From NCBI GenBank assembly GCA_050247435.1, contig JBFWUF010000008.1, positions 22,704-86,703 of the forward strand: a DNA stretch of 64,000 nucleotides, in the 5' to 3' direction. The DNA comes from Blastocatellales bacterium (GTDB lineage Bacteria; Acidobacteriota; Blastocatellia; RBC074). The notes under the pieces are model-generated. The model ran no database searches, was not told the DNA's origin, and saw nothing but the letters and a program-made list of their open reading frames with translations. Shown here piece after piece: positions 1 to 22,450 of the stretch (the stretch's first letter is position 1; the number at the start of each line of letters is the position of its first letter). Position numbers and translations under genes: made by a program.

Positions 1-308
1 TGTCTCAAACGGCTGCCGATCTGCTCAAAGAAATTGAAAATGCGAGCGACGGCAAGCTGCGGTTTCTGCGCTGGGCAATGTACGGGAACAATCAGCCACA
101 GCACCCAATTCACAAATTGTCCTCTCAGGAAGCGGAAAGAGTTTGGGAAGCCATCAAAAGCAAGCCTGCCAGACCCTATGCAATGGCGGCGTGAGTCAGT
201 TCAAAGCGCCATCCCGTTCACAAAGACAACCAAAGGAATCGAGCGGGAGATAAGCCGTGCGATTCGCAACCAACTCATCATTCACATTTACCAGAAAGGA
301 ACAACATC

Positions 309-725
309 ATGTCAGCATACGCAGTTATCTCGGGGCGTCTTGGCGTTGAGCCAGAATTGCGGTTCACGAACAGCGGCACGCCGGTCATCAATCTTTCCAT
401 CGCCAATAATCGCAGCGTCAAAGTTGGCGACAAGCGTGAATCAATTGCCGATTGGTTCAAAGTGACGGTTTTCGGGCGCGACGCCGAGATCATCAATCAG
501 CACGCGAGAAAAGGTAGCGCGCTCGCTTTCAACGGGCGATTGCAGAACGAGAAGTACGTAGATCGTGACGGCAACCAGCGCACCTCGACCATTCTCGTGG
601 CGAGCAGCTTTGAGTTCATGCCGACGGCGAAGCGTGACGAGGGCAATGCAGACGGCGCGACCAAGAATGACACCGGAGTCGAGACTGTCGTGGGAAAAGA
701 AACCGAGGACGACATTCCGTTTTGA
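309..725 (+). CDS. ssb: single-stranded DNA-binding protein
   Basis: 138 aa with an OB-fold-like N-terminus and an acidic C-terminal tail ending in DDIPF, the canonical SSB tail. AAAGGA RBS before the ATG. Confidence 0.9.
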   Translation: MSAYAVISGRLGVEPELRFTNSGTPVINLSIANNRSVKVGDKRESIADWFKVTVFGRDAEIINQHARKGSALAFNGRLQNEKYVDRDGNQRTSTILVASSFEFMPTAKRDEGNADGATKNDTGVETVVGKETEDDIPF

Positions 726-758
726 AGCGCCGCCCAAAACGAGCGTTCTTCGCTTTGA

Positions 759-792
759 GGATGCTTCTGCTAACTGTGGAAGCATCCTTTTT
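759..792 (+). terminator. rho-independent terminator after ssb
   Basis: Stem GGATGCTTC (759-767) pairs with GAAGCATCC (779-787), with an 11-nt loop. A TTTTT run follows at 788-792. Confidence 0.5.
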
Positions 793-867
793 CGCAGAGA
801 GTGGTCTGTTAATGTCTCAGGTATTGGCGGTTGGTAATTGGGCAAAAAACAGAAAGGAGTTTTTGCT

Positions 868-1365
868 GTGATTACCATCGTCAATCGAAAGACCTGGCGT
901 GGCGAGAGCGTCTACGTTGGGCGACCAAGTGTTCTGGGAAACCCATTTTGCATCGGCAAAGATGGGGAGCGTTCAACCGTAATTTCGAAGTATCGCCGCT
1001 GGCTTTGGAATGAACTCCAACGAGGATCGGGTCTCGTCTTTGATGAGCTTCACCGGCTTGCGAAGTTGGCCAAGTCTGGTGATCTCATTCTTGCTTGTTG
1101 GTGTTTTCCCGAAAAGTGCCACGCCGAAACTATCAAAGCGGCCGTTGAATGGATCAGCAGTCAATCTCAACAGAAACGGAGTGAAACTATGTCGGACAAT
1201 CAGAATGAAATTACCGTAGAGAGACAATGCCATTGCTGCGGAAGCTACGATGGCGACCCATACGCGATTTTGAGCAACGGATACTGCATCCCGTGTGATG
1301 AGGGCGCGAAAATCTCGTGCCTCGAAACCATCAGCCAACAACAATCATCGCCAGGCTTACAATGA
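868..1365 (+). CDS. DUF4326-family protein with a C-terminal Cys-rich (zinc-ribbon-like) extension
   Basis: Motifs VYVGRP, GNPF and ACWCFPEKCH are typical of DUF4326. The C-terminus contains C-x-CC...C-x2-C. The GTG at 868 has an AAAGGAG RBS 8 nt upstream; the ORF-track start at 838 is a TTG without an RBS. Confidence 0.6.
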   Translation: MITIVNRKTWRGESVYVGRPSVLGNPFCIGKDGERSTVISKYRRWLWNELQRGSGLVFDELHRLAKLAKSGDLILACWCFPEKCHAETIKAAVEWISSQSQQKRSETMSDNQNEITVERQCHCCGSYDGDPYAILSNGYCIPCDEGAKISCLETISQQQSSPGLQ

Positions 1366-1396
1366 AACCGCGGCCATCGTTGTGATGCGAGCGGTC

Positions 1397-1762
1397 TCAT
1401 TGCTGCGATCTCGGAAAGGCATCGCTGGATGATTCTGCCTTTCCATCAGAGAGCGGCTTTTCAAGCTTCGCGGGTTTCTCAACTTTCGCAGGTTTCGTTT
1501 TGTTCCGGCTCTCGCTGTTCTTCTTTTGCAGCCACTGCCGGAAGCCCTTGTCCGCATCGAACAGCCGCCGCATTCCCTTGTCAACCACATCGTCAGGAGT
1601 GGTTTCTCGGCCAGTCACATCCCTGACGTAGGCGACGTAATCCCGTAGGTTTGCCAACACTGTCCAACTCAGCTTGAACGACTCTCTTTCAGCGGCGATT
1701 TCATCGAAGTTGATCAGCGGAACCGAGGCGCCGCCCGTTTCTTTTTTCTTTCCTGTCGGCAT
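1397..1762 (-). CDS. hypothetical protein (leading-region gene)
   Basis: 121-aa ORF starting MPTGKKKE with an AAGGAG RBS 8 nt upstream. Lys/Glu-rich C-terminus. No recognizable motif. Confidence 0.4.
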   Translation of the reverse strand: MPTGKKKETGGASVPLINFDEIAAERESFKLSWTVLANLRDYVAYVRDVTGRETTPDDVVDKGMRRLFDADKGFRQWLQKKNSESRNKTKPAKVEKPAKLEKPLSDGKAESSSDAFPRSQQ

Positions 1763-2141
1763 AAATTCATCTCCTTGATGATTGGTTTTCGGGAACAAAT
1801 CCTGCTCTGGATTTGAAGACACTTCCCATTGAGCAAGAGCCATTCCATCGGAGTTTTCCTACTCGCCATTTCCAGCCGGATCAGATTAGGTTGTCACGTT
1901 GCATAAAGGGTTTTGAGCTAAAGGAGCCACTCTCAGCGAAGGGATTAATGCTCGCCGCAAATGGGTGAAGGGCGACGACAACATTTCACCAGACCTGCCT
2001 CAAAATGACCCGACATTTTTCCAGAGCAGCGGCAAAAGCGATTGGTACACCTGAGCGCAAATCATCTGCTAACAAGTGGGGCAGTGGATGAGGTCTACCA
2101 ATGCTCGCAAATCAAAGCCGCTACAAGCGTTATCAGGTCTT

Positions 2142-2176
2142 TCAGGTCTGCGATTGTATTTGCTGGGCAGACCTGA
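2142..2176. promoter_or_regulatory. candidate oriT / nic-site hairpin
   Basis: Perfect 10-bp inverted repeat: TCAGGTCTGC (2142-2151) and GCAGACCTGA (2167-2176), with a 15-nt loop. It is preceded by a CAGGTCT direct repeat. It lies in the 450-bp intergenic region just upstream of the RHH-like gene and the relaxase. Confidence 0.3.
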
Positions 2177-2296
2177 CGCGCCAAATGAATCAAAGGCTGA
2201 AGATAGCCGGAGACCGACGGCACGATGGTTGCCCATTTGTCATTACTGGCGAGGCTCAAGGAAAGCCGCATTCAATGAAGCGATGGAGGGCTGACA

Positions 2297-2857
2297 ATGC
2301 CGATTCGGAACAGGCCAAGACTGGTGGCTTCCACGTCGAGTACGACCAAACTTTTCGTGGACGATCTGCGCGAGGTCGGCAGCCTTTCGCGTGACGAAGA
2401 AAAGAGCCGGAGCGACGTAATTCGAGAGCTTGTCCACGAGGCATTGCGCCAACGCAGATTGCGCGCGCTGGGGCGAGACGAGAGCGAAAACCACGTGCGC
2501 AAAATCTATCAGGAGACCGTCGCCGAAGCCATCGCCCCAGTGATAAAGGAATTCGCCGATCTTCGTCAGCAATTGGCAATCGTGGCGGCGCAATCCGAAG
2601 TGAGTGTGACGTCAGACGGCGCGACAAAAAACTACGAGGTGATGCTGACGCTCTTATCGCATCTGCTGCGCCGGTCAATCGTGACCGACAACGTTGTCAA
2701 GGTGCTGATGACCGTCGGCATGCAAAAGGACGGCGTTGATTCCGAAGAGATCAGAAAACAACTCGCGGTTCAGGATGAGACAGCGATACAACAGGCACGC
2801 GAATTGATTCAGAAGCTTCCCGGAGATTACCCACACGCGATTCTGTCTGAAGGTTGA
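2297..2857 (+). CDS. hypothetical protein, possible ribbon-helix-helix relaxosome accessory protein
   Basis: 186 aa, directly upstream of the relaxase. The segment SRSDVIRELVHEALRQRR resembles RHH/CopG-type DNA-binding helices. Weak evidence. Confidence 0.4.
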   Translation: MPIRNRPRLVASTSSTTKLFVDDLREVGSLSRDEEKSRSDVIRELVHEALRQRRLRALGRDESENHVRKIYQETVAEAIAPVIKEFADLRQQLAIVAAQSEVSVTSDGATKNYEVMLTLLSHLLRRSIVTDNVVKVLMTVGMQKDGVDSEEIRKQLAVQDETAIQQARELIQKLPGDYPHAILSEG

Positions 2858-2872
2858 TGAGAACTACGAGAT

Positions 2873-5245
2873 TTGCGCGAAGAGCAGCAGCAGGTCAATG
2901 CGATGAAAGTTGTCGTCGTCGTCAAAAAGGGATTGGGAGGCAGCGGCGTCAGTCAGGCGGCTCGCTACGTTTCCACACGTGAGCGCGACGAAGAGCGCGA
3001 AGGTCAGGAAGCGCGCAAGCTCTTCTCAGAGAATGAAGAGCGATTGAACCATTCTCAGGCCAATCGTCTGCTCGGCGATGGACGCGATCCGAAGACGGAT
3101 GACGTGCTGCATCTCGTCATCAGCTTTCACCGGGAAGAAGATTTCAATCAGTTGGGAATGGATGAGGAATCACGGCTCGACGGAGTTCGGAAAACGACGC
3201 GCGGCACGCTGAAAGAGATGACCGATGCGCTTCACGCAGAGAGGCTGCGCTGGGTCGCTGGCATTCACCGCAATACCGACAATCCGCATGCTCATCTGCT
3301 CATCCATCGTGACTATGTTGATCGGCAGACGGGACGCACAAAACGTTTGGACACTTTGCCCAAAGAATTGCGCGTTAGCTGGGAGAAAGCGCCGGACGGA
3401 AAGCGCATCATCAATCCCGGCCTGTTCAGCCAGACCTTTGAAAAACATCTCGATCAGAACATCAAGCAGTTCACGAACGAGCAGCAAAGAAAAAGCCAGG
3501 AAGAACGAGTAGAACGCACCACACTCGGCCAGGCGATGGTCGCCTCCGACCGCATTGAGCAATTGCGGGAATCTTTCCGGGCGGCTGTCACCTTTGGCGA
3601 GTGGCGTCGCTACCAGGTGGTTGATGAGCAGGGCCGGAGCCGATTGATTTCTGAATACGATCTGCGGCAAAGAGCCGGTGCGATTGGCAGGCAGATGACG
3701 GCGCAGATAAAGTTCAACCTGCCTGCCGAGACACGCGCACAAATGCGGTGGGAAGCTGAAGCGCAGGAGATCGGCAGGTATGGCGGCGTGATCAAAAAGA
3801 TTCATGTCATGCGTCTGGCCGATCTCAACTCTGCCGAGTTGAATTTGCAACAAGCCATCTCAGCTTCGCGGCCCGCCATAAGCAAATCGGTTGCAATCAG
3901 AGAAAAGTATGGAACTGCCGGATTGCCGATTTCAACGCCGATCCTTTCACGCGCAGACCTGGGACAGTTGCAGAACCGCGCGATCTTTCTTGCAGATGCA
4001 GAGAAGCTGAACAAGCTGGAGGAGATTCGTGTGACGCTGGCCACTGAAAAAGGCGAGCCAGCGCGCCTGGACACGGAAACAGGGCGGCTGCGAGCGCAGC
4101 GTTTCGTCGCGCGCTCACGCCTGGTCGTCGAGCAGCAAACTGCTGCCCGCTTTGAAGAGGCAAAACACATTCGGCAATGGGGTGTTGGCAACTGTGAACA
4201 CCAGACGAAATATTCTCTCGCCGGAATTGAATCGGCGCTGGCTTCCGCGTCCGACCAAGCAAAGTTTATCGGCGCGCGAAGCCTTCACTGGAACGACGAG
4301 AAGCGTGAAGTGGCGCGCGAGAAAGCCGATGAGTTGAGCCGGCAGCGCGTCGAAGTCCTGAGCCGGATTGCAGACGAGCGCGGGAAGCTTTCAGAAGAAG
4401 TAAAGCGCCGCGCTGAAGTGGTCAAAGCCCTTGATGAAATTTATGCAGGAGAGAAAGAACGATACCGCAAGGAAGGCCGCAAATTGCCAGCGATGCTCTT
4501 CACCGAGCAGGATTTGAGAGAACTCGATGCACACGCCGTTCGTCGTCACGATCCGGGAGTTTATCGAACGCTGACAACCATCGAACGGGATTACGATGCG
4601 CACAGCCATCGCGATCCGAAGGAGGTTGTCCGTGAGCGATTAAGCTGCGCCGGCGCGCGCGAACTAATGGCCGGAATTGAGGTGCGTGAGTCCCAGGCAA
4701 AGCTGGAAAGATTCAACGAACGCCGCACCCAGATGATGGTGATTACGCAAGAAGGACACGGGCCAGAAATCACGCTCGCCCGCTTGGCTGACGTTGAGCC
4801 GAAATCGCCGCTGGAGCAGCTCTTCAAACCTTTGCTGACACGAAGCGAGAAGTATCAGCGAGTCGCGGCAGCGGTCGAAAAATACGGCGAGCGCCTTCAG
4901 CAACAACACAAACAAAACCAAGCCACGTTTGCCGTGCTGGCTGAAGCCGCCCGGAGCTACGAGCAGGATTTCATCCGGTTGAATCCGGGGCAGCCAAACC
5001 CACGTCCGCAATTCACGGCTCGTGAAATCAGCAGGCTCGAATTACAGATCATCAAAGAGAACGATCCGGCGCTTCGTGAACACTATGCGAAGTTCTATCA
5101 CGAGGCGTTGGAAGAACCGCGTCCAGGGTTTTCACGCGCAATCACTCTCAACCCGACAGAAGGCAAACAGATTCTTGATCTGAAGCGCGACGTGCCGCTC
5201 TTCAGAGATGCTGATCACCAGCACGCGACAAGTCTTGAACGGTGA
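2873..5245 (+). CDS. conjugative relaxase (MobA/VirD2-type, MOBP/MOBQ-like) with a long uncharacterized C-terminal extension
   Basis: N-terminus MKVVVVVKKGLGGSGVSQAARYVSTRE carries a candidate catalytic Tyr. The three-His relaxase motif is HRNTDNPHAHLLIHRD. The true start is probably the ATG at 2903; the ORF-track start is a TTG at 2873. About 480 aa after the relaxase domain have no recognizable motif. Confidence 0.8.
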   Translation: MREEQQQVNAMKVVVVVKKGLGGSGVSQAARYVSTRERDEEREGQEARKLFSENEERLNHSQANRLLGDGRDPKTDDVLHLVISFHREEDFNQLGMDEESRLDGVRKTTRGTLKEMTDALHAERLRWVAGIHRNTDNPHAHLLIHRDYVDRQTGRTKRLDTLPKELRVSWEKAPDGKRIINPGLFSQTFEKHLDQNIKQFTNEQQRKSQEERVERTTLGQAMVASDRIEQLRESFRAAVTFGEWRRYQVVDEQGRSRLISEYDLRQRAGAIGRQMTAQIKFNLPAETRAQMRWEAEAQEIGRYGGVIKKIHVMRLADLNSAELNLQQAISASRPAISKSVAIREKYGTAGLPISTPILSRADLGQLQNRAIFLADAEKLNKLEEIRVTLATEKGEPARLDTETGRLRAQRFVARSRLVVEQQTAARFEEAKHIRQWGVGNCEHQTKYSLAGIESALASASDQAKFIGARSLHWNDEKREVAREKADELSRQRVEVLSRIADERGKLSEEVKRRAEVVKALDEIYAGEKERYRKEGRKLPAMLFTEQDLRELDAHAVRRHDPGVYRTLTTIERDYDAHSHRDPKEVVRERLSCAGARELMAGIEVRESQAKLERFNERRTQMMVITQEGHGPEITLARLADVEPKSPLEQLFKPLLTRSEKYQRVAAAVEKYGERLQQQHKQNQATFAVLAEAARSYEQDFIRLNPGQPNPRPQFTAREISRLELQIIKENDPALREHYAKFYHEALEEPRPGFSRAITLNPTEGKQILDLKRDVPLFRDADHQHATSLER

Positions 5246-5272
5246 GAAGCGCGTGCAGCCGTCATAGCAATC

Positions 5273-8023
5273 ATGAGTGACAGAGAAACTTTCAATTCGG
5301 ATTTGAGGTTGATGGAACTAGCCGCGCGCAACCCTTCGCTCGGCGGGCGCGAACTGTTCCAAGAAATCATCGAACGCGGCCCTGTACTGGAAGTGATCGA
5401 GCATCCTCAGGCGCGAAATCCGCGCGCAGCATTCATTTCAAATGAGATTGACCATCCTGATCATCGAACTCCGGTTGAGCAAGCGAACTGGCTGAACGAA
5501 CAGAGTCAGGCCATGCGTGACCTGTATGAACGTGGGGCCGGGATCAAAGGCGAGGTGTTGGTCATTCCCACTGAAGAATACGAACTGAGCGAAGAACGCG
5601 AGACGCCGTTCATCACGACTCTTTCCTATGCGCTGAGAAAGATTGGCGACGTTGAGAGGGCACGTGAGTTTCACGCGCTGGCGCTCGCTATCAGCGGTGA
5701 AACGGCTGACGCACGCACACAGATCGCAGTGTTCAAAACCTACTATGACCGGATCGCGCGTGGCGAACGAGAACAGCGTTTCCGCAAAGGAAATGAGGCT
5801 GAACGAGCCGGAGCATTGACGCAGACGCTTGAGGAGATGCGTGTGATCGCTGCTGAGATGGCGAGGCTTGAAACCCGAGAAAGCGTAGACGCCGTTCAAA
5901 CAGCAGAAGATCGAGAAGATGACATTCCAGAAAACCGGCGGAACACTGCTGCGCACCGAATCAGTTTGCGCGATGAATCGCTACGCCTGCCCGCAGGGTT
6001 GAGCTATGAACAGAAAGAACGACTCGTCAGCAGAACGATCCCGGAAATTGATCGCCGACTTGAGCGCGGCGTTAATCGTGAAGCTCTCTTCAAGGCGATT
6101 GACAGAGCGATGTTCCGGCCCGATCCAGCCAAATATAGGCGTAAACTCGCAGAGCTTACTGGCACGCCCAAAGACGAGAACCCCGAACGTGCGGTCAGCA
6201 AAGATGAGTATCTCGAAAGCCAGCGGACATTGCTCCAGTTGTGTGAAGAAGAGCGTCTTCATCTGCGCGAATTGAAGGCCACGCACGATGGGAATGAACT
6301 GGAACCTCACCAGTATGGGCGTCTCAGCCAGGTTGATAATCTGGCTCGTCGGCTCAGACAAGGGATAGGCAGAAATGTTTCGGATGAGAGGCCTGATAGC
6401 GCCGCGCATTCGCGCCTGTTTGTGAGCGTGCCGGAACGGGGTGTCGGGGAGAATGCGCTTCGTCTGCCCGTGAGTAGCGTAAAGGTCTACGAGACGATGG
6501 CAAAGATTGCAGCAGGAGAGAAACTATCCCTGCAAACCTGGGCTGGCAAGGATGGCCCCGAAGTCAGGCTGGCTTTGACGGAACGTGAGGCCGATGAGCG
6601 AAGCAGAATCGGGGCTTTCCTCAAGAACTATGTTGGTGAGCGATTGCGCGATCCGGAGACGCGCTCACTCAACACTTCTTCTGTTTTCCGAGATGCACGT
6701 GCCGCAATCTTTAGCGCTACTACACCAGAAGCACTGGGCCGCGTCGCGGCTGATTTGCTGCGCGTCAATGAACGCCGAAGCGGGGAATTACGACAGCATC
6801 GCGTCGCGCCGGAGAAGTATCCGCTTCCGATAGTGATGCCGCTGAACACACGGGAGCGAAATCTGCTTTTCAATGGCCGTGCGCCGGAGCATCACACGCC
6901 GGAAATGCGCGAGCTACGGCTGAATTATGGGCTGTCAAGAAGGGAGCGTACTGCGCGGATCGCCGACCTTCGTGAAGGAAGGATAGAATCATCTGAAGTT
7001 CTCAAGACGATGCTTAAAGAACTGGAAACAAGAACAACAGCCAAGGCCATCGCGCATTTTCAGGCGAGCATCATCAACGAAAAGATGAACAGCGAAGGAA
7101 GCGTGAATCTTCACCTGCTGAATCAAAGAATCGCGCCCCACGAGCGGACCTTCCTTTATGAGCTTAGTGAAGAAAGAAAGAGAGAGTTAGTGAGATTGCC
7201 GTCTGCTGGGCGATCCGAAGTTGTCAGAGACAACGACCTTGCCGAACCGCCTGTCACTCGCGTCTTCGGTGCGATTCCCAGAGAAAACCGCACCTTTCGT
7301 GAATACATGGCGAATATGGGAAGCATCGAACGGCAACTGCTGAGTGAAGCATTGATTAAGCGAGGAACTGAGTTTGAAAAAGCAGTTTCAGAACAATCCA
7401 GGGACAGGCTGACCATCACCGAAGCGCGCGCGTTACTTCCTGAAGCGCAGCAACGAGAAATCCGCTTGCGCGCCAGAAATCTGGCGTGGCAAAGTCTCGT
7501 GCCGGAGGAGACGTTCGACCGTAATCCTTCGCCCGAAGCCGTGCGGATCAGCGAGACAATCGCTCACATCCAGGAGCATCTTCAGGAAAGAGCGAGCATC
7601 GCCCGAACTGTCCGCACTGATTTTACGGCTGAGCGGATTCGCTCAGAAGAAACAGCAAGGCAAGCGCCAGGGGCGCACAGGCTGGTGGAGCTTGATCGTT
7701 ACGCGGCGCAGACTCGAGAAGATGTCTATCATGCTTTTGAACTGCTTGATATTCAGCGCCGCGACCTTGAATTTGCTCGCACACATCACACTGGCCGAGT
7801 TAAACAAGAAGACATTTGGGATCGCGGCACAGGTGTCCGACCGGAAATATCAAAGGAATCAAACTCGATTTCCACCTCGATGTACGTCACCTCAGATCGT
7901 GAATGGCATTTCGACAGTTTGCGTGAAGCGCTCAATGTTGAGTTGAGCAGATTGCAACCCGAAGAAAGAGGGCGCGAGATTGGACGGCACCACCAGGTGG
8001 ATGATTTAACGCGAGATCATTGA
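5273..8023 (+). CDS. large (916 aa) hypothetical protein downstream of the relaxase
   Basis: Long ORF rich in charged residues (R/E), predicted helical. No Walker A motif, nuclease motif or TM segment was recognised. Clean codon usage; 27 nt after the relaxase stop. Confidence 0.5.
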   Translation: MSDRETFNSDLRLMELAARNPSLGGRELFQEIIERGPVLEVIEHPQARNPRAAFISNEIDHPDHRTPVEQANWLNEQSQAMRDLYERGAGIKGEVLVIPTEEYELSEERETPFITTLSYALRKIGDVERAREFHALALAISGETADARTQIAVFKTYYDRIARGEREQRFRKGNEAERAGALTQTLEEMRVIAAEMARLETRESVDAVQTAEDREDDIPENRRNTAAHRISLRDESLRLPAGLSYEQKERLVSRTIPEIDRRLERGVNREALFKAIDRAMFRPDPAKYRRKLAELTGTPKDENPERAVSKDEYLESQRTLLQLCEEERLHLRELKATHDGNELEPHQYGRLSQVDNLARRLRQGIGRNVSDERPDSAAHSRLFVSVPERGVGENALRLPVSSVKVYETMAKIAAGEKLSLQTWAGKDGPEVRLALTEREADERSRIGAFLKNYVGERLRDPETRSLNTSSVFRDARAAIFSATTPEALGRVAADLLRVNERRSGELRQHRVAPEKYPLPIVMPLNTRERNLLFNGRAPEHHTPEMRELRLNYGLSRRERTARIADLREGRIESSEVLKTMLKELETRTTAKAIAHFQASIINEKMNSEGSVNLHLLNQRIAPHERTFLYELSEERKRELVRLPSAGRSEVVRDNDLAEPPVTRVFGAIPRENRTFREYMANMGSIERQLLSEALIKRGTEFEKAVSEQSRDRLTITEARALLPEAQQREIRLRARNLAWQSLVPEETFDRNPSPEAVRISETIAHIQEHLQERASIARTVRTDFTAERIRSEETARQAPGAHRLVELDRYAAQTREDVYHAFELLDIQRRDLEFARTHHTGRVKQEDIWDRGTGVRPEISKESNSISTSMYVTSDREWHFDSLREALNVELSRLQPEERGREIGRHHQVDDLTRDH

Positions 8024-11000
8024 TGACTCGGTCTTTGTGCCCAGCGCCGTGACAGTAGCTTTCCGTTCCAACTTGCCCCAACCAATAATCGCTCCTTTCA
8101 TTGCCGTCCAGACAGAGCGCGCCATGACGTAATACATTACCTGGCGATAACAGAATCGCTGCAGGAACAGCCACGACAGCAGGCTCCATTGCTCGCGTTT
8201 TTCGAGCAGAAACGCGAAGCCAGCGGCCATCCAATCCACTGCCAGAAATAGCGCATAGTAAAAGAGCGCCTGTTTGAGATTGGTGATCGCGTATTCGCCT
8301 GGATGTTCCCATCGCTCGAGCGCTGCTGAAATTAGCGTCCATACGAACATCAAATCCATAAGTGGCGAAATCAACGGAAAAAGAATCTGAAAAATCCAGA
8401 CGTTTGGCATAGCGACGAAACCTAGCGCGCCGTATCGCGAATTGAAGAGCGCATCGCGATGTTTCCACATACACTGCAACGTGCCAAACGACCAGCGAAA
8501 TCGTTGTTTGGCCAACCCGCGCACCGTATCAGGAGCTTCCGTCCAGGCAACCGCGTCTTCTTCATATCCGATCCTGTAACCAAGCTTGCGAACTTTAAGC
8601 GTCAGATCCTGGTCCTCGGCCAGCGTGTCTGAGGCGAAACCGCCGAGTTGTTTGAGCAGGTCGCGCCGCCACGCGCCGACCGCGCCTGGCACGACCGTGA
8701 TGCAGTTGAGCGCGGCGAAGGCGCGGCGATCTAGATTCTGCGCCGTGATGTATTCGAGCGCCTGCCAGCGCGTCACCAGATTGATGCGATTGCCGACTTT
8801 GGCGTTCCCGGCAATCGCCCCGACGCGCGGATCGTCAAAGCGGCGGGCGAGCGCGCCGACCGTTTGCGGAGGAAAGATCGTGTCGGCGTCCAGCGCGACA
8901 ACGATTTCGCCTTGCACGAATTGCAACCCGAAATTTAGCGCTTCGGCTTTGCCGCCGTTAGTTTTAGTCAGCAGACGCACGCGCGATTCGGCGGCGAACT
9001 GTTCACGCACAACCTCGCTCGTGCCGTCGGGCGAACCGTCGTCCACGACGATGATTTCGAAGCGGGGATAGTCCGACGCCAGCAAACTGTGGATCGTTTG
9101 CGCGATCACTTTCTCTTCGTTGTAGGCGGCGATGATAACGGAAACGAAGGGCGCTTCTGCGGCGCTCACAGTTTCCCGCGTTCGCCGCCTTGACCGTCGT
9201 TGTTGCGCCAGCGCCAGCGCGCCGATGAAGACGAGGCGCGCCAAACCGAGCACGATGCCGATCAGGAAAACCCAGCGCAGCGCCCAACCTCCAACCGCCA
9301 TTGCATAAAAGGTCACGGCGTCGGCTTTGGAAAAGAAGCCTCTCTCGGGCGGTAGCGGCGGCATAGCCTGATCGCGCGTCATCCCGGCCAGTTGTGAAAC
9401 CGTCGTAAAGCGATAGCCTTTGGTGCGCAGATCGCGAATCAACCTCGGCAACGCCTCGACGGTTTGCGCGCGGTCGCCTCCGCCATCGTGCAGCAATACC
9501 ACCTGTCCGCGCTCGTCGGGGTTGGGGTTTTCGATTCCCGCCATCGTGCGCTGGACGATGGCGTCCGCACCGGGCAAAGTCCAGTCGTCGGGATCCACGC
9601 GGAGTCCGGTGATGATGTAACCCAGGCGATTCGCAATCGCCGCCGGCTCGACTTCGTCCGGCGTTTGAGGTTCAGCGTCGCCGAAATACGGCGCGCGAAA
9701 CAGCCGGGTTGACCTTCCGGTTAGCGATTCGATCAACCGCTGCGTCGCGTTGAGTTCCAGTTCGGTGATGCGGCCCGGAATTTCGCCGAGGTTCGGATGC
9801 GTGTACGAATGATTGCCGATGTCGTGGCCTTCGGCGACGATGCGTTTGACGAGACCGGGATTCCCCTGCCCGTTCTGGCCGATGATGAAGAATGTCGCGG
9901 GAACGTTTTCGCGTTTGAGGATATCGAGGATTTGCGGCGTCCACTTCTCGTCCGGCCCGTCGTCGAAGGTCAAGGCGACCTGGCCCGGACGCCAGCCCGT
10001 GCGTCGAATGACGTAAGAGGAGGGAATGCTCAGGTATTGCGCGGAACGAATCAGCCCGCTCTTCGCATCCAGCGTGATTTCCCGCGAGCCTTCCCTGGGC
10101 GAAGCCTCGAATTGCAGAACCTCGCCCATCCCCTCGAAGTCCACGTCGTAACCGTACACAATCTGCTTCAATCCATCAGGAGAAGCCTCCATCTGCTGAT
10201 TGCCGAAAATAGCCCATAGCGACGGGTCTTCGGAACCCATCCGCCAGAGCGCGAATCCCGCGACGTTGTAGCCGCGCGCAACGCGCATCTGGTTGAAAGC
10301 GGTCACGCCGTCGAGAAACCAAACCGTATGCTCGGCGCCGCCTTCATCTCCGTAGCGGAAATAAGGATTGCGAGTCGCCGGATCGAACTTGATGCTGGCC
10401 TCGCTGTCGCGCGCTTCGAGTACGGCTTCCTGAAAAGTCAGCTCTTCGGTTTCTTTGCCTTTGCTCCAGCCATAGCCGTAGCCGCCGATGCAGACGACCG
10501 TTTTCGCGGGATCGAGTTCTTTCATTCGTTTGGCCAGCGTCGCCTCGAACCAGGGCTGCCCGGCGATGCTGCCCGGATCGCTTTCATTCCAATGCTCGTC
10601 GTAGGCCATCAAGAGGAGAGAATCATTGGCTGCGGCGTAATCCCGGTAATTCCACGCCGGGTCGTCGAAGGGCGCGGCCTGCATCACCGTCCAGTTCCGC
10701 GCCTTGAATGCTGCGTGAAGCTGTCGCACGAACGCAAGCAGATTTTTCTGCGAAGTGTTCGGGACTTCCTCAAAGTCAATGCAAACACTCTGGAAGCCAT
10801 TGTCGCCGACTACGCGCGTCAGTTCACTGACCAGCCGCGTGCGCGCGGTTTCATCGCTGATTTGTTGGGCGAGCGTTTGCGGTTCCCACTTCCCATCCTT
10901 CGAATTGTGAATCATCGGGATGATCGGCAAGTCGGAACGTTGTTTGCGAACCAGATTGAGCGCGCGCGGATCAACTTCAAGCGCCAATGGATGATCGCCC

Positions 11001-11449
11001 GTTTGCAGCCGAATCCATTCGGGGATCAATTGGTCAAGTTGCGGCAAATGGCGTTTGAGCGATTGGTAGCTCGAATCGTCCCAGTTGACATAAAACCCGC
11101 TGGCCAGCGGGCGCGTGGGCGAATGACTCACGCTCACGGCCGGCGTGGGCGTTTTGCCTTGATGAGCTATCGTCGCCCGGTCAAGCGCGGCCCGTGCACG
11201 CGCGGCTTTCCGCTCGCGGCGATCAGCGATCAACTGCGGCGCTTGCGGTTTGGCGTCCACCACGCCGGGCAGGACGGACAACTGTCGCAGATTCAATTGC
11301 GGCAATGTCGGATTGATGAGTATGCTGGCGACGAAGATCGCTGCAAGCGCCGTGACGATGGCGGCCAATGGCCAACCGGCGCGGCGCAGGTTGCGGCTTC
11401 GGCGGCCCAGTGGATCGTAAAAAACAGGAAGACTTTTGCCAGTTTGCAT
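8006..11449 (-). CDS. multidomain exopolysaccharide synthase: N-terminal GH18-like domain + CE4 (NodB) polysaccharide deacetylase + GT2 processive glycosyltransferase (PgaB/PgaC-like fusion)
   Basis: N-terminal TM anchor. GH18-like motifs YVNWDD and CIDFEEV. CE4 motifs TFDDGPD, HSYTHP and RAPYFG. GT2 motifs VSVIIAAYNEE, VVDDGSPDG, LDADT and QRFRW (the QxxRW motif). C-terminal TM helices. Confidence 0.85.
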   Translation of the reverse strand: MQTGKSLPVFYDPLGRRSRNLRRAGWPLAAIVTALAAIFVASILINPTLPQLNLRQLSVLPGVVDAKPQAPQLIADRRERKAARARAALDRATIAHQGKTPTPAVSVSHSPTRPLASGFYVNWDDSSYQSLKRHLPQLDQLIPEWIRLQTGDHPLALEVDPRALNLVRKQRSDLPIIPMIHNSKDGKWEPQTLAQQISDETARTRLVSELTRVVGDNGFQSVCIDFEEVPNTSQKNLLAFVRQLHAAFKARNWTVMQAAPFDDPAWNYRDYAAANDSLLLMAYDEHWNESDPGSIAGQPWFEATLAKRMKELDPAKTVVCIGGYGYGWSKGKETEELTFQEAVLEARDSEASIKFDPATRNPYFRYGDEGGAEHTVWFLDGVTAFNQMRVARGYNVAGFALWRMGSEDPSLWAIFGNQQMEASPDGLKQIVYGYDVDFEGMGEVLQFEASPREGSREITLDAKSGLIRSAQYLSIPSSYVIRRTGWRPGQVALTFDDGPDEKWTPQILDILKRENVPATFFIIGQNGQGNPGLVKRIVAEGHDIGNHSYTHPNLGEIPGRITELELNATQRLIESLTGRSTRLFRAPYFGDAEPQTPDEVEPAAIANRLGYIITGLRVDPDDWTLPGADAIVQRTMAGIENPNPDERGQVVLLHDGGGDRAQTVEALPRLIRDLRTKGYRFTTVSQLAGMTRDQAMPPLPPERGFFSKADAVTFYAMAVGGWALRWVFLIGIVLGLARLVFIGALALAQQRRSRRRTRETVSAAEAPFVSVIIAAYNEEKVIAQTIHSLLASDYPRFEIIVVDDGSPDGTSEVVREQFAAESRVRLLTKTNGGKAEALNFGLQFVQGEIVVALDADTIFPPQTVGALARRFDDPRVGAIAGNAKVGNRINLVTRWQALEYITAQNLDRRAFAALNCITVVPGAVGAWRRDLLKQLGGFASDTLAEDQDLTLKVRKLGYRIGYEEDAVAWTEAPDTVRGLAKQRFRWSFGTLQCMWKHRDALFNSRYGALGFVAMPNVWIFQILFPLISPLMDLMFVWTLISAALERWEHPGEYAITNLKQALFYYALFLAVDWMAAGFAFLLEKREQWSLLSWLFLQRFCYRQVMYYVMARSVWTAMKGAIIGWGKLERKATVTALGTKTESSMISR

Positions 11450-21051: not shown

Positions 21052-22450
21052 TCAGCCTCCTTCCGACGCTGCGCTCCAACGCGATTAGCGCGCGCTTGGT
21101 GGCGACCTGGAAATCGGCCTCGCGCAGGCGTTCATCGGAGTAGCGGCGCGCGGTTTCGAGCACGAAAAGATAAGCCACGTCGCCTGAGCGGTAAGAGGTT
21201 TGAGCCAGGCGAATGTCCTGTTCCAGCGGTGGCAGCACACGCGCGCGCCACAGATCGTGCGCCGCACGCGCCTGTCTGAGTTGTGCGTATGCCTCTCTCA
21301 CTTCCGAAACGATTCGTTGCCGGGCGGCAATCAATTGTTTGGCGGCGCGCTCGATCTCAGCCTCGGCGCGCGAAATATTGCCTTGATTCCGGTTGAAGAT
21401 CGGCAGATCAATCAGCAGGCCAGGCCCCTGCTCGAAGCCATTCGTCCCGCGTCCGTACTCTTTGGCGATGGCTGTGACGTTGACGATGCGCGAGCGTTCC
21501 CACTTAGCGCGCGCGCCGGCGGCTTCAATAGCCAACTCTCCAGCTATGACCTCCGGTCTGGCGTCGAGCGCCTGTTTGATCAATTCGTTGAGCGATTCTG
21601 ATTCGGAGACAGTGGGGAGCGGCGGTACTGCAGACGCCTGTACGCTGATGATCCGATCAGGCGCGGGCGTCAGCGATGTTTGCGGGACGATCAGATTCAG
21701 GTCTGGGGATTCAACGCCGAACCCTAACAACGAGCGCAATCGCTCTTTGGCCAGTTCGGCGTCTTGCGTGAAGCGGGCCTCGCGCTCTTCCGCCAGGCGC
21801 GCGTCGGTGATGGCGGCGCTCGTTTCCAATTCGCTGATGTCGCCCGCGCGCAGCCGGGCGTTGATGATAACGGCGATTTCCCGGCGCTCGTGCGTGATCT
21901 CCTCGGCGATGCCTGCGCGCGTATGGGCCGCCGCGTACTCGGCGTAAGCCAGCCGCACGTCGCGCGCCAGGTCGAGCGCGCGCGACACCAGGGTTTCGGC
22001 GACGCGTTCCTGCTCCAGTTTGGCCGCCGCCACGCGTCGGGGCCGTTGCCAGATCGCTTCGATCGGCCAGTTGGCGACTGCTTCCAGGATGCGGAAGCTG
22101 AAGGGAAAGATCATTGTCAATTGCGGGTTGGAAAGCAGCCCGGCTTGGATCACGTCGGCGCGCGCCACACCCAGCGCCGTCATCTCGGCTTGCAGCGCCG
22201 GACTGTTCCACAACGCAATCGCCACAGCCTCGTCTTCCGTCACGCCGTCGCCAAGAGAAATGCCTTCGGGCAGCGCCGGAACCTCTGACTTCGTCGCCGG
22301 GTGAAGTTTATGCCCGATTCGGCTTTCAACCTCTTTCGACACGTCGGCGGGCTGTCGTCCGGCCTGTGCCAGTACGCACGCTGGGAGCAGCATCATGGAA
22401 AAGACAATCACCAGGGGCTTCATCGTTCGTCTCCAACCTGCGCGGTTCAA
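21038..22450 (-). CDS. czcC: TolC-family outer membrane efflux protein (CzcC-like)
   Basis: 470 aa with a signal peptide and two repeats of alpha-helical coiled-coil plus beta segments. Overlaps the czcB start. Confidence 0.85.
   Translation of the reverse strand: MNRAGWRRTMKPLVIVFSMMLLPACVLAQAGRQPADVSKEVESRIGHKLHPATKSEVPALPEGISLGDGVTEDEAVAIALWNSPALQAEMTALGVARADVIQAGLLSNPQLTMIFPFSFRILEAVANWPIEAIWQRPRRVAAAKLEQERVAETLVSRALDLARDVRLAYAEYAAAHTRAGIAEEITHERREIAVIINARLRAGDISELETSAAITDARLAEEREARFTQDAELAKERLRSLLGFGVESPDLNLIVPQTSLTPAPDRIISVQASAVPPLPTVSESESLNELIKQALDARPEVIAGELAIEAAGARAKWERSRIVNVTAIAKEYGRGTNGFEQGPGLLIDLPIFNRNQGNISRAEAEIERAAKQLIAARQRIVSEVREAYAQLRQARAAHDLWRARVLPPLEQDIRLAQTSYRSGDVAYLFVLETARRYSDERLREADFQVATKRALIALERSVGRRLIANH

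Follow-up and report, generated by a model that had tools for sequence, protein, structure and literature searches.

We have analysed a window of 64,000 nt from the genome assembly of a Blastocatellales bacterium (GCA_050247435.1; contig JBFWUF010000008.1, positions 22,704-86,703, forward strand), whose first 8,023 positions carry a compact set of genes around a relaxase of the MOBL/MOBP cluster. The window opens inside a gene for a 470-aa protein of unknown function (p470), of which the C-terminal 63 codons are present (3-194, plus strand), and continues on the same strand with an element-borne ssb gene, coding for a single-stranded DNA-binding protein (SSB) of 138 aa (309-725), and with a gene for a 165-aa protein in which a DUF4326 domain is fused in frame to a cysteine-rich module of 58 aa (868-1365). 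These are followed by a minus-strand gene for a 121-aa protein (1397-1762), by an intergenic region of 534 bp (1763-2296), and by a plus-strand operon made of a gene for a 186-aa protein (2297-2857), the relaxase gene (2903-5245) and a gene for a 916-aa protein of unknown function (5273-8023). An earlier note on this DNA had described its first part as resembling the leading region of a conjugative element; the ssb gene, the DUF4326 gene with its cysteine stretch, the 121-aa gene, a hairpin in the intergenic region, the gene of ribbon-helix-helix (RHH) type and the relaxase gene are all found where it had placed them.

Relatives of this locus were taken from genome and metagenome assemblies and are labelled L001-L016, L084, L086, L088, L090, L091, L095 and L096. 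Comparison with them shows that positions 1-8023 of the window belong to a conserved gene module, of which they are the right part and which more than 10 assemblies of Blastocatellia/Acidobacteria have in common. The left flank of the module can be read only in the relatives. In L001-L016, L088 and L096 the shared order begins with a CHAT-TPR protein, an anti-sigma factor and a sigma factor (both on the minus strand), p90, a bPH_2 membrane protein, a RecD-like helicase and p470, and continues with SSB, DUF4326, a separate 56-aa gene, the 121-aa gene on the minus strand, the 186-aa RHH gene, the relaxase and a protein of 916-970 aa. The p470 gene lies upstream of ssb in all relatives, and the fragment at the edge of the window is 87% identical to p470 of L004 by tblastn. 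All genes of the module are under purifying selection, codon positions 1 and 2 being more conserved than position 3. To the right of the stop codon of the 916-aa gene, where homology with the relatives ends, at least four unrelated flanks are found among them, which argues for movement or recombination after the clade arose. Furthermore, proteins identical to the DUF4326 protein and to the relaxase are on record from a Blastocatellales metagenome-assembled genome (MAG). The records of L010-L015 carry the labels Heliomicrobium sp./Heliobacteriaceae (Bacillota), whereas the protein sources of the same or sister sequences are given as Blastocatellales, Blastocatellia or Acidobacteria; one of these two label sets, Bacillota or Acidobacteriota, is probably a taxonomy-mapping error.

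The open reading frame of the relaxase gene spans 2873-5245, and its true start is likely the ATG at 2903, which gives 780 aa as in the relatives. The protein passes the Pfam gathering cut-offs of MobL (PF18555; 33.1 bits against 28.5, with a match that covers only positions 57-172 of the 383 of the profile) and of PF03432 (26.3 against 24.6), and it stays under the NCBIfam cut-offs of MobP3 (42.4 bits against 150) and MobP2 (32.3 against 200). An identical protein is named 'relaxase MobL' by NCBI, and the search against the PDB returned only a weak match to a chain named 'Relaxase' (E 0.27). The nuclease domain occupies the N-terminal 200 aa or so, and the rest of the protein is long, charged and helical. 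Residues R21-Y22, H70, H122, D126, P128, H129 and H131 are invariant in seven relatives at 39-100% identity; in RelLS20, the relaxase of plasmid pLS20, the catalytic residue is Tyr26 (PMC5313138). Two of the relatives, L086 (31% relaxase identity) and L095, adjoin coupling proteins of TraG/VirD4 type, and a type IV coupling protein (T4CP) is present only in such distant relatives. This context and the integrase found beside other distant relatives, together with the invariant Tyr22 and the three-histidine motif, argue at the level of sequence that the module is a genuine conjugative-type module for DNA processing.

The length of the intergenic region between the two divergent small genes is kept in the relatives. 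Its core (1950-2224) is 84-94% identical to four relatives, compared with 66-81% at the third codon positions of the flanking genes, which served as neutral proxy for non-coding conservation. The variable columns of the core show no 3-nt periodicity and no reading frame is conserved in it, and a small conserved open reading frame was rejected on these grounds; an Rfam scan of positions 1-8100 gave no match, which leaves a non-coding RNA without support as well. Conservation above third positions, in the absence of a coding signature or an Rfam family, thus argues that the core is a functional non-coding element. The intergenic region folds as single-stranded DNA with a z of -2.2, and nothing similar to the core was found by blastn among 72,556 plasmids. 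Within the core, a repeat search found two 25-nt direct repeats (ACATTTCACCAGA... and ACATTTTTCCAGA...), 32 nt apart (1981-2037, plus strand), which fall in invariant alignment columns and are conserved in the relatives. They are followed by a GAGGTCTACC unit at 2090-2099 and by a cluster of TCAGGTCT units at 2133-2176, two of them in tandem (2133-2140 and 2142-2149) and one inverted (2169-2176), in the layout TCAGGTCT-T-TCAGGTCT ... AGACCTGA. In 17 module loci, which reach down to 51% relaxase identity, the 14-mer GGTCTTTCAGGTCT (2136-2149) from this cluster is present once and only once, at the equivalent position; a scan of viral contigs with it returned chance matches only and was uninformative. 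Five more exact copies of TCAGGTCT lie elsewhere in the window, at 21697, 34505, 36369, 46492 and 46624, making a total of 8 compared with 1.06 expected from shuffles, none of which reached 8.

The last two units of the cluster form a hairpin, TCAGGTCTGC / GCAGACCTGA (2142-2151 / 2167-2176), with a perfect 10-bp stem and a 15-nt loop, which the earlier note had taken as the mark of a candidate origin of transfer (oriT). The hairpin does lie within the conserved non-coding core, and it is kept in L088 at 58% relaxase identity; L096, at 51%, has no inverted partner, and beyond 58% the element that persists is the TCAGGTCT repeat, not the hairpin. Among 5000 dinucleotide shuffles of the 534-nt region, 74 (1.5%) contained a perfect stem of 10 bp or more with a loop of 3-30 nt, and the 64-kb window holds about 12 distinct hairpins of this kind compared with about 4.7 per shuffle, so that the stem taken by itself is uncommon without being unique, and is not strong evidence. 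The 131-nt stretch around it, as free single-stranded DNA, has a fold no more stable than that of shuffles (z -0.12). A terminator was rejected because the genes on both sides point away from the hairpin; the hairpin may well double as an operator. With these features, the core 1950-2224 with its TCAGGTCT repeats is probably, as judged from the alignments, the oriT of the module.

Read on the minus strand, the cluster presents an inverted repeat and then AAGACCTGA, with AAGACCTG-A following the inverted repeat. At MOBP origins the nick consensus is (C/T)ATCCTG(C/T), with an inverted repeat upstream (PMC3772185). The equivalent minus-strand site of L084, at 43% relaxase identity, reads AGACCTG-CATCCTG-A and contains the core nick hexamer ATCCTG of MOBP. 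By analogy, it would be the minus strand that is nicked, in the repeat cluster or beside it, and the predicted site would lie in the minus-strand stretch 5'-GCAGACCTGAAAGACCTGATAACGCTTGTA.

The two genes that flank the intergenic region code for candidate DNA-binding proteins. The 186-aa protein, first of the relaxase operon, has an RHH-like N-terminal motif (residues 18-52) and a helical C-terminal part; its score for RHH_1 (PF01402) is 20.3 bits against a cut-off of 20.5 (E 5e-4, residues 22-52), and it is kept at 40-88% identity in all relatives with the module. Sequence and profile searches of its family against the PDB gave nothing meaningful, and hhalign found no relation between its profile and that of the 121-aa protein. 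It is a probable accessory protein of the relaxosome. The 121-aa gene, with its ATG at 1762 and a ribosome-binding site (RBS) AAGGAG, is divergent from the relaxase operon. Its product had been regarded as a candidate for anti-defence in the earlier note, which did not state that the gene lies on the minus strand; our results give it a different place. Its family is essentially acidobacterial, with 64 representative clusters among 1.84 billion proteins. The protein matches DUF2274 (PF10038) below threshold (17.6 bits against 23.8, E 0.005), as do 30 of 31 members of the family (best E 3e-4), and in a profile search with the family 2 of the 10 distant matches scanned pass the DUF2274 cut-off (28.5 and 30.2 bits). 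One of these two true DUF2274 proteins sits in L095, divergent from an operon of an accessory gene and a MobL-like relaxase beside the T4CP; in L086, a weak homologue of the 121-aa protein lies two genes after the relaxase. In the predicted model, with a core at a predicted local distance difference test (pLDDT) of about 90, an extended segment is followed by helices at residues 33-50 and 56-84 and by a disordered basic tail rich in Lys, Glu and Pro, and this modelled strand-helix-helix topology matches that of solved RHH proteins. Searches of the family against the PDB by sequence and profile returned nothing meaningful, a tblastn search of a true DUF2274 relative against plasmids gave no match, and no publication on DUF2274 was found in the literature searched. 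By sequence profile and model, the 121-aa protein is a remote DUF2274 relative with an RHH fold. The oriT of pLS20 needs two RHH auxiliary proteins (PMC5675868). This precedent, the RHH model, the DUF2274 link and the divergent position in L095 make it most likely that the protein is a second DNA-binding partner, in the relaxosome or as autoregulator of the origin region, and not an anti-defence protein.

On the other side of the intergenic region from the relaxase, the SSB is recognised by PF00436 (3e-25; 88.7 bits against 26), TIGR00621 (1e-26; 94.2 against 53.95) and phrog_44 (2e-31). Its C-terminus, ...ETEDDIPF, ends in an acidic tip which we take, from what is established for bacterial SSBs, to be a partner-binding tip of the D-D-D-I-P-F type. 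Identity at the three codon positions of ssb is 0.91/0.93/0.73, indicating purifying selection. After the gene stands a terminator-like hairpin with a perfect 10-bp stem, AGGATGCTTC ... GAAGCATCCT, followed by TTTTT (758-793, plus strand). The DUF4326 gene starts with GTG, 8 nt after an AAGGAG, and both its RBS and its start lie inside a second hairpin (833-878; TGGTAAT...ATTACCA / GCAAAAA...TTTTTGC). The 161 nt of positions 720-880 fold with a z of -3.6, and the fold around the start may serve translational control.

The DUF4326 domain itself extends over about 868-1170, and its score is well above the cut-off (PF14216; 71.7 bits against 25, residues 12-90); no known anti-defence family came with it. 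Among 44 homologues R19, L23, N25 and C77 are invariant and C79, P81, C84 and H85 nearly so, and the motifs G-R-P-x-x-L-G-N-P and C-W-C-x-P-x-x-C-H are present. The AlphaFold model has a pLDDT of about 97 over residues 1-100; a Foldseek search with it against the PDB found nothing, and PDB searches by sequence and profile found nothing meaningful. The cysteine-rich module that follows (1189-1365; MSDNQNE...CHCCGS...CIPCD...), with its C-x-CC...C-x2-C stretch at residues 121-143 of the 165-aa protein, keeps an ATG of its own, preceded at 8 nt by GGAG. It had been read as an addition to DUF4326, and it proves to be a neighbouring gene: in most relatives (for example L004-L009) it is a separate 56-aa gene with its own AAGGAG and a 20-nt overlap with the end of DUF4326 at its stop, whereas in the window and in L001/L010 an indel of 2 nt has joined the two genes into one. 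The fused form is found in three protein clusters at 73-100% identity, which argues that the products of the two genes act together. Four potential metal ligands are kept in every variant of the module, and its codon-position identity (0.90/0.82/0.70) indicates selection.

These genes occupy a variable slot between p470 and the 121-aa gene, where each of four genes (the SSB, the extra 184-aa gene, DUF4326 and the 56-aa gene) may be there or missing, depending on the relative. The 56-aa gene is missing from L088 and L096, L090 has the SSB only, and L084 lacks the SSB, DUF4326, the 56-aa gene and the helicase, with the remaining module intact. The 184-aa gene, between ssb and DUF4326 in L001 (9250-9804) and L010 (7243-7794), has no Pfam match and a match at 8e-10 to a PHROG labelled 'GTP-binding domain', and is another variable payload of the slot. 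No recognised anti-defence gene is found in the slot with Pfam, NCBIfam and PHROGs, a screen that did not include a dedicated anti-defence profile search.

Beyond this module, DUF4326 is present in 761 of 50,697 phage records and in 64 of 72,556 plasmids, and is thus a mobilome-associated domain. The N4-like phage St11Ph5 carries it between the subunit genes of RNA polymerase 1 (RNAP1), at 4.8-5.2 kb from the left end. In a conjugative MOBP plasmid of Methylobacterium it has a ParB-like gene on one side and a strawberry-notch helicase on the other, with a zincin-like metallopeptidase and a toprim protein close by. These contexts, left-end regions in phages and gene sets of leading-region type in plasmids, fit early establishment or counter-defence, without proving it. 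Published predictions place DUF4326 as a clade within the rhodanese-phosphatase superfamily and assign to it the processing of ADP-ribose-derived phosphates (PMC9503650, PMC7824862), and fusions of it to components of replication and restriction-modification have been described (PMC7824862).

Together, these observations lead us to consider it rather probable that positions 1-8023 of the window are the right-hand part of a conserved DNA-mobilization module, carried by a mobile element in a Blastocatellia (Acidobacteriota) genome. We propose that both RHH proteins would bind the TCAGGTCT units and the 25-nt repeats of the core 1950-2224, and that this binding would assemble the relaxosome and autoregulate the two divergent promoters. 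The relaxase, through Tyr22 and His122/129/131, would then nick the minus strand, which serves as template for its own operon, either inside the conserved AGACCTGAAAGACC or just 3' of it; the minus strand is chosen as transferred strand (T-strand) because in pLS20 it is the template strand of the relaxase operon that is nicked. Exported 5'-first, this strand would bring the 121-aa gene, the DUF4326-cysteine gene, ssb, p470 and the helicase into the recipient in that order, and the relaxase operon would enter last. If the minus strand is indeed the T-strand, by analogy with pLS20, then ssb and the DUF4326 gene lie on the first-transferred side and, like p470 and the helicase, are plus-sense and could be transcribed from the incoming single strand. 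The 121-aa gene is sense on the predicted T-strand, which would make its expression from incoming single-stranded DNA impossible. SSB would coat the incoming strand, and DUF4326 with its 56-aa zinc-ribbon partner would form a dispensable payload, most likely for early establishment or counter-defence. In the mobile element, no mating-pore genes are visible, and for this reason it is probably mobilizable rather than self-transmissible, with its type IV secretion system (T4SS) and coupling protein encoded elsewhere.

Several observations weigh against this reading. No T4SS, coupling protein or integrase is found from 8 to 64 kb of the window, that is, in the 56 kb to the right of the module, or on the left side in the closest relative (L016), where about 20 kb could be read. 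The comparison of the block with a leading region next to a candidate oriT and a relaxase stands in outline (a relaxase operon, a conserved core, and ssb and DUF4326 on the side opposite the relaxase); it is wrong for the 121-aa protein and stays a hypothesis for DUF4326 with its cysteine-rich module. The Xis/Int genes of the distant relatives are missing here, and this copy may not be transfer-competent. Upstream of ssb there is no Frpo-like structure, the folding of that stretch being no better than shuffles (z +0.27), and DUF4326 is absent from the text and supplements of a survey of leading regions (PMC11541004). Compensatory changes are not seen in the hairpin stem, and L011 and L014 have one or two broken pairs in it. 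Both the nick site and its strand are proposed by analogy only, and an exact ATCCTGC stands on the plus strand at 1799-1805, within the stretch 5'-GGGAACAAATCCTGCTCTGGATTTGAAG, whose use would reverse the polarity of transfer.

This plus-strand site opens the way to a different arrangement, in which the hairpin and the TCAGGTCT repeats would be no more than operators through which the two RHH proteins, as repressors, control the divergent promoters, and the nick would lie elsewhere, for example at ATCCTG|C. Transfer would then begin with the relaxase operon and end with the ssb/DUF4326 block, which would not be a leading region. Arrays of RHH operators typically consist of short repeats, here spaced by 9 nt and joined by an inverted copy, the hairpin shows no covariation, and the ATCCTGC, which fits the MOBP consensus, is invariant in the close clade, where it forms part of a small inverted repeat, AAATCC TGCTCT GGATTT (1797-1814), some 40 nt upstream of the start codon of the 121-aa gene. 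Relatives with 58% relaxase identity or less (L088, L096, L090 and L084) do not have it, however, whereas the AGACCTGAAAGACC block persists to 51%; and one ATCCTG in 534 nt, over two strands, has a chance expectation of about 0.26. Operator and oriT readings are, furthermore, not mutually exclusive, as operator and oriT functions overlap in RP4. Entry of the relaxase genes first would also be the opposite of what is described for pLS20 (PMC5313138), and we regard this arrangement as unlikely. Still less probable, in our judgement, is that the locus is a stranded remnant of an integrative mobilizable element that has lost its xis/int end, and that its genes persist for reasons which have nothing to do with transfer, so that the term leading region would have no functional meaning today. 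Relatives at 43-51% relaxase identity carry an HTH_17 gene after the homologue of the 916-aa gene; in L090/L091 (47%) the module ends with HTH_17 and a tyrosine integrase beside a tRNA-like fragment, a probable att remnant, and L084 and L096 keep HTH_17 with no integrase beside it. In the clade of the window, homology ends exactly with the stop codon of the 916-aa gene, and a chromosomal gene for a glycosyltransferase overlaps this codon; no T4SS or T4CP lies nearby, and a search for att direct or inverted repeats, comparing the gap between sigma and p90 with the DNA after the 916-aa gene, found only chance-level 9-10-mers. Against such a remnant stand the purifying selection on all module genes, the conservation of the non-coding core above the neutral proxy and the unrelated right flanks beside which the module is found; and an integrase or T4SS could lie at the left end, beyond the DNA reached.

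The function of the DUF4326 protein and its zinc-ribbon peptide can be argued separately. They could be helpers of DNA processing or replication for the incoming strand, acting with SSB and the RecD-like helicase, instead of a counter-defence pair. DUF4326 always stands beside ssb, in one co-oriented string with the RecD-like helicase in the relatives; its PHROG matches include families labelled 'DNA repair protein' and 'NrdA-like', among its neighbours on plasmids are RdgC, a DEAD-box helicase and a toprim protein, and the published fusions to replication and restriction-modification components point the same way (PMC7824862). The literature prediction, on the other hand, favours ADP-ribose-derived substrates (PMC9503650), and L084 and L090 do without the gene although their module is otherwise intact. 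A helper role seems to us doubtful, though it deserves to be kept in mind; as a hypothesis, DUF4326 with its zinc-ribbon peptide stays the only genuine counter-defence candidate of the block. A more ambitious proposal, that this pair is a new counter-defence effector, delivered and expressed first and directed against NAD+/ADP-ribose immunity, and that the divergent DUF2274-type RHH protein is an unrecognised, widely conserved relaxosome component of MobL-like relaxases outside Firmicutes, is improbable when both of its parts are taken jointly.

The borders of the module and its remaining genes add some further observations. p470 has no match in Pfam, PHROG or PADLOC. The 916-aa protein, last of its operon and of the module, is 71-76% identical in close relatives and 41-56% identical in L084 and L090; it matches nothing in Pfam, NCBIfam, PHROG or PADLOC and has no Walker A motif. 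Its residues 91-205 (window 5543-5887) weakly resemble residues 45-143 of p470 of L084 and L090 (blastp, 2e-4 and 1e-3), so that the two proteins share an N-terminal segment; neither has a family, a Walker motif or a match in the defence library. The RecD-like helicase upstream of p470 in the relatives is the only gene of the module that matches PADLOC, and the idea that the module is a known defence system was rejected on this ground. The right flank in the window consists of ordinary-looking chromosomal genes, among them Nramp, RND pumps and two-component systems. The first of them, on the minus strand and convergent to the module (8006-11449), codes for a 1147-aa fusion of a GH18 glycosyl hydrolase, a polysaccharide deacetylase and a PgaC-like GT2 synthase, and its stop codon overlaps the end of the 916-aa gene by 18 nt, precisely at the homology border of the relatives.

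Directly to the left of the module, a triad of CHAT-TPR protease, zf-HC2 anti-sigma factor and sigma70-like factor is found in every relative, down to 43% relaxase identity (L004 1-4819, L016 9629-15187, L084 1-5711, L090 13944-19495, L096 1-2561). The triad is present twice in one MAG (L012 and L084) and is also common in metagenomes without the module; it may be cargo, a preferred insertion site or a plain chromosomal flank. In L016 (92-4179), about 6-10 kb to the left of CHAT, lie genes for DUF6915, an AAA ATPase, a protein of unknown function and a DUF2201 VWA/metallopeptidase, then PIN, a sigma-54 activator and an S9 peptidase. An S9 peptidase adjoins CHAT in L090 too. The tRNA-like fragment of L090 (2240-2302; also L091 3-24) is the 3' part, of about 50 nt, of a tRNA-Met(CAT)-like gene, with anticodon arm, T-arm, acceptor and CCA and without a D-arm. 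A search of the window and of 10 loci detected no tRNA genes; no intact tRNA lies in the 20-kb locus of L090, so that the element there would exceed 18 kb and include the CHAT triad.

Acidobacteria are a dominant phylum of soil whose mobile elements are almost uncharacterised, and the module offers a concrete candidate pair of relaxase and oriT, defined by a core of 280 bp, a 14-mer and two candidate DNA-binding proteins. DUF2274 gains a recurring genomic setting beside MobL-like relaxases. DUF4326, so far discussed only for phages and giant viruses, is now placed on what would be the early-entering side of a relaxase-borne element. The results extend known principles of conjugation to a new lineage and nominate one small gene pair for anti-defence; they leave the understanding of conjugation unchanged.

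The closest known system is the MOBL relaxosome of pLS20 from B. subtilis, made of RelLS20, Aux1, Aux2 and oriT_LS20. Both systems share the match to the MobL model, an N-terminal Tyr, the HxxxDxPHxH three-histidine motif, two small proteins of RHH type with the oriT, and an inverted repeat at the origin, here a candidate one; in both, the origin has the relaxase operon pointing away from it, and the transfer genes enter last, which for our module is a prediction. They differ in the host, Acidobacteriota in our case, whereas 98.2% of MOBL relaxases have been reported in Firmicutes (PMC5313138). In our module, furthermore, one RHH gene is divergent and DUF2274-like, whereas in pLS20 both are in tandem upstream; the TCAGGTCT repeat, of GACCTG type, is unrelated to the nick region of pLS20; no T4SS is adjacent, and genes for mating pore, coupling or integration are likewise not seen beside the module in this clade; and the 916-aa protein follows the relaxase, one of two large proteins of unknown function, with p470, that set the module apart. 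The layout also recalls IncP plasmids. In RP4, the relaxase operon traJ-traI faces a divergent traK leader operon. Here too, a relaxase operon whose first gene codes for a small DNA-binding protein and a divergent gene for another such protein enclose the candidate origin, the divergent gene being on the side expected to enter first, and an inverted repeat is followed by a CCTG-containing unit on the strand that would be nicked (AAGACCTG|A in the window and CATCCTG|A in L084, with the consensus YATCCTG|Y). In contrast to IncP/MOBP systems, the relaxase fails the cut-offs of MobP2 and MobP3, and the core hexamer of this clade is GACCTG, not ATCCTG.

With DUF4326 proteins of phages and giant viruses, our protein shares the conserved motifs and, if the proposed polarity is right, a position in early-entering DNA, as in N4-like phages. 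Here, however, the domain is paired with or fused to a lineage-specific 56-aa cysteine-rich peptide, whereas the partner domains described in the literature are Macro, SLOG and NADAR (PMC9503650), and its carrier is a relaxase-bearing element and not a virus. Leading regions of plasmids and integrative and conjugative elements carry SSB genes and anti-defence islands of up to 30 open reading frames, with genes in an orientation that lets the transferred strand serve as template for their transcription (Samuel et al. 2024, PMC11541004). Compared with these, the block in the window has only two or three genes; it contains no recognised anti-defence family, methyltransferase, toxin-antitoxin pair or Frpo-like element, and the gene closest to the candidate oriT, the 121-aa gene, is oppositely oriented. 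What it does have in common with them is an ssb gene near the candidate oriT, on the side opposite the relaxase, a slot of variable content, and an orientation of ssb and DUF4326 that would permit transcription from the strand predicted to be transferred.

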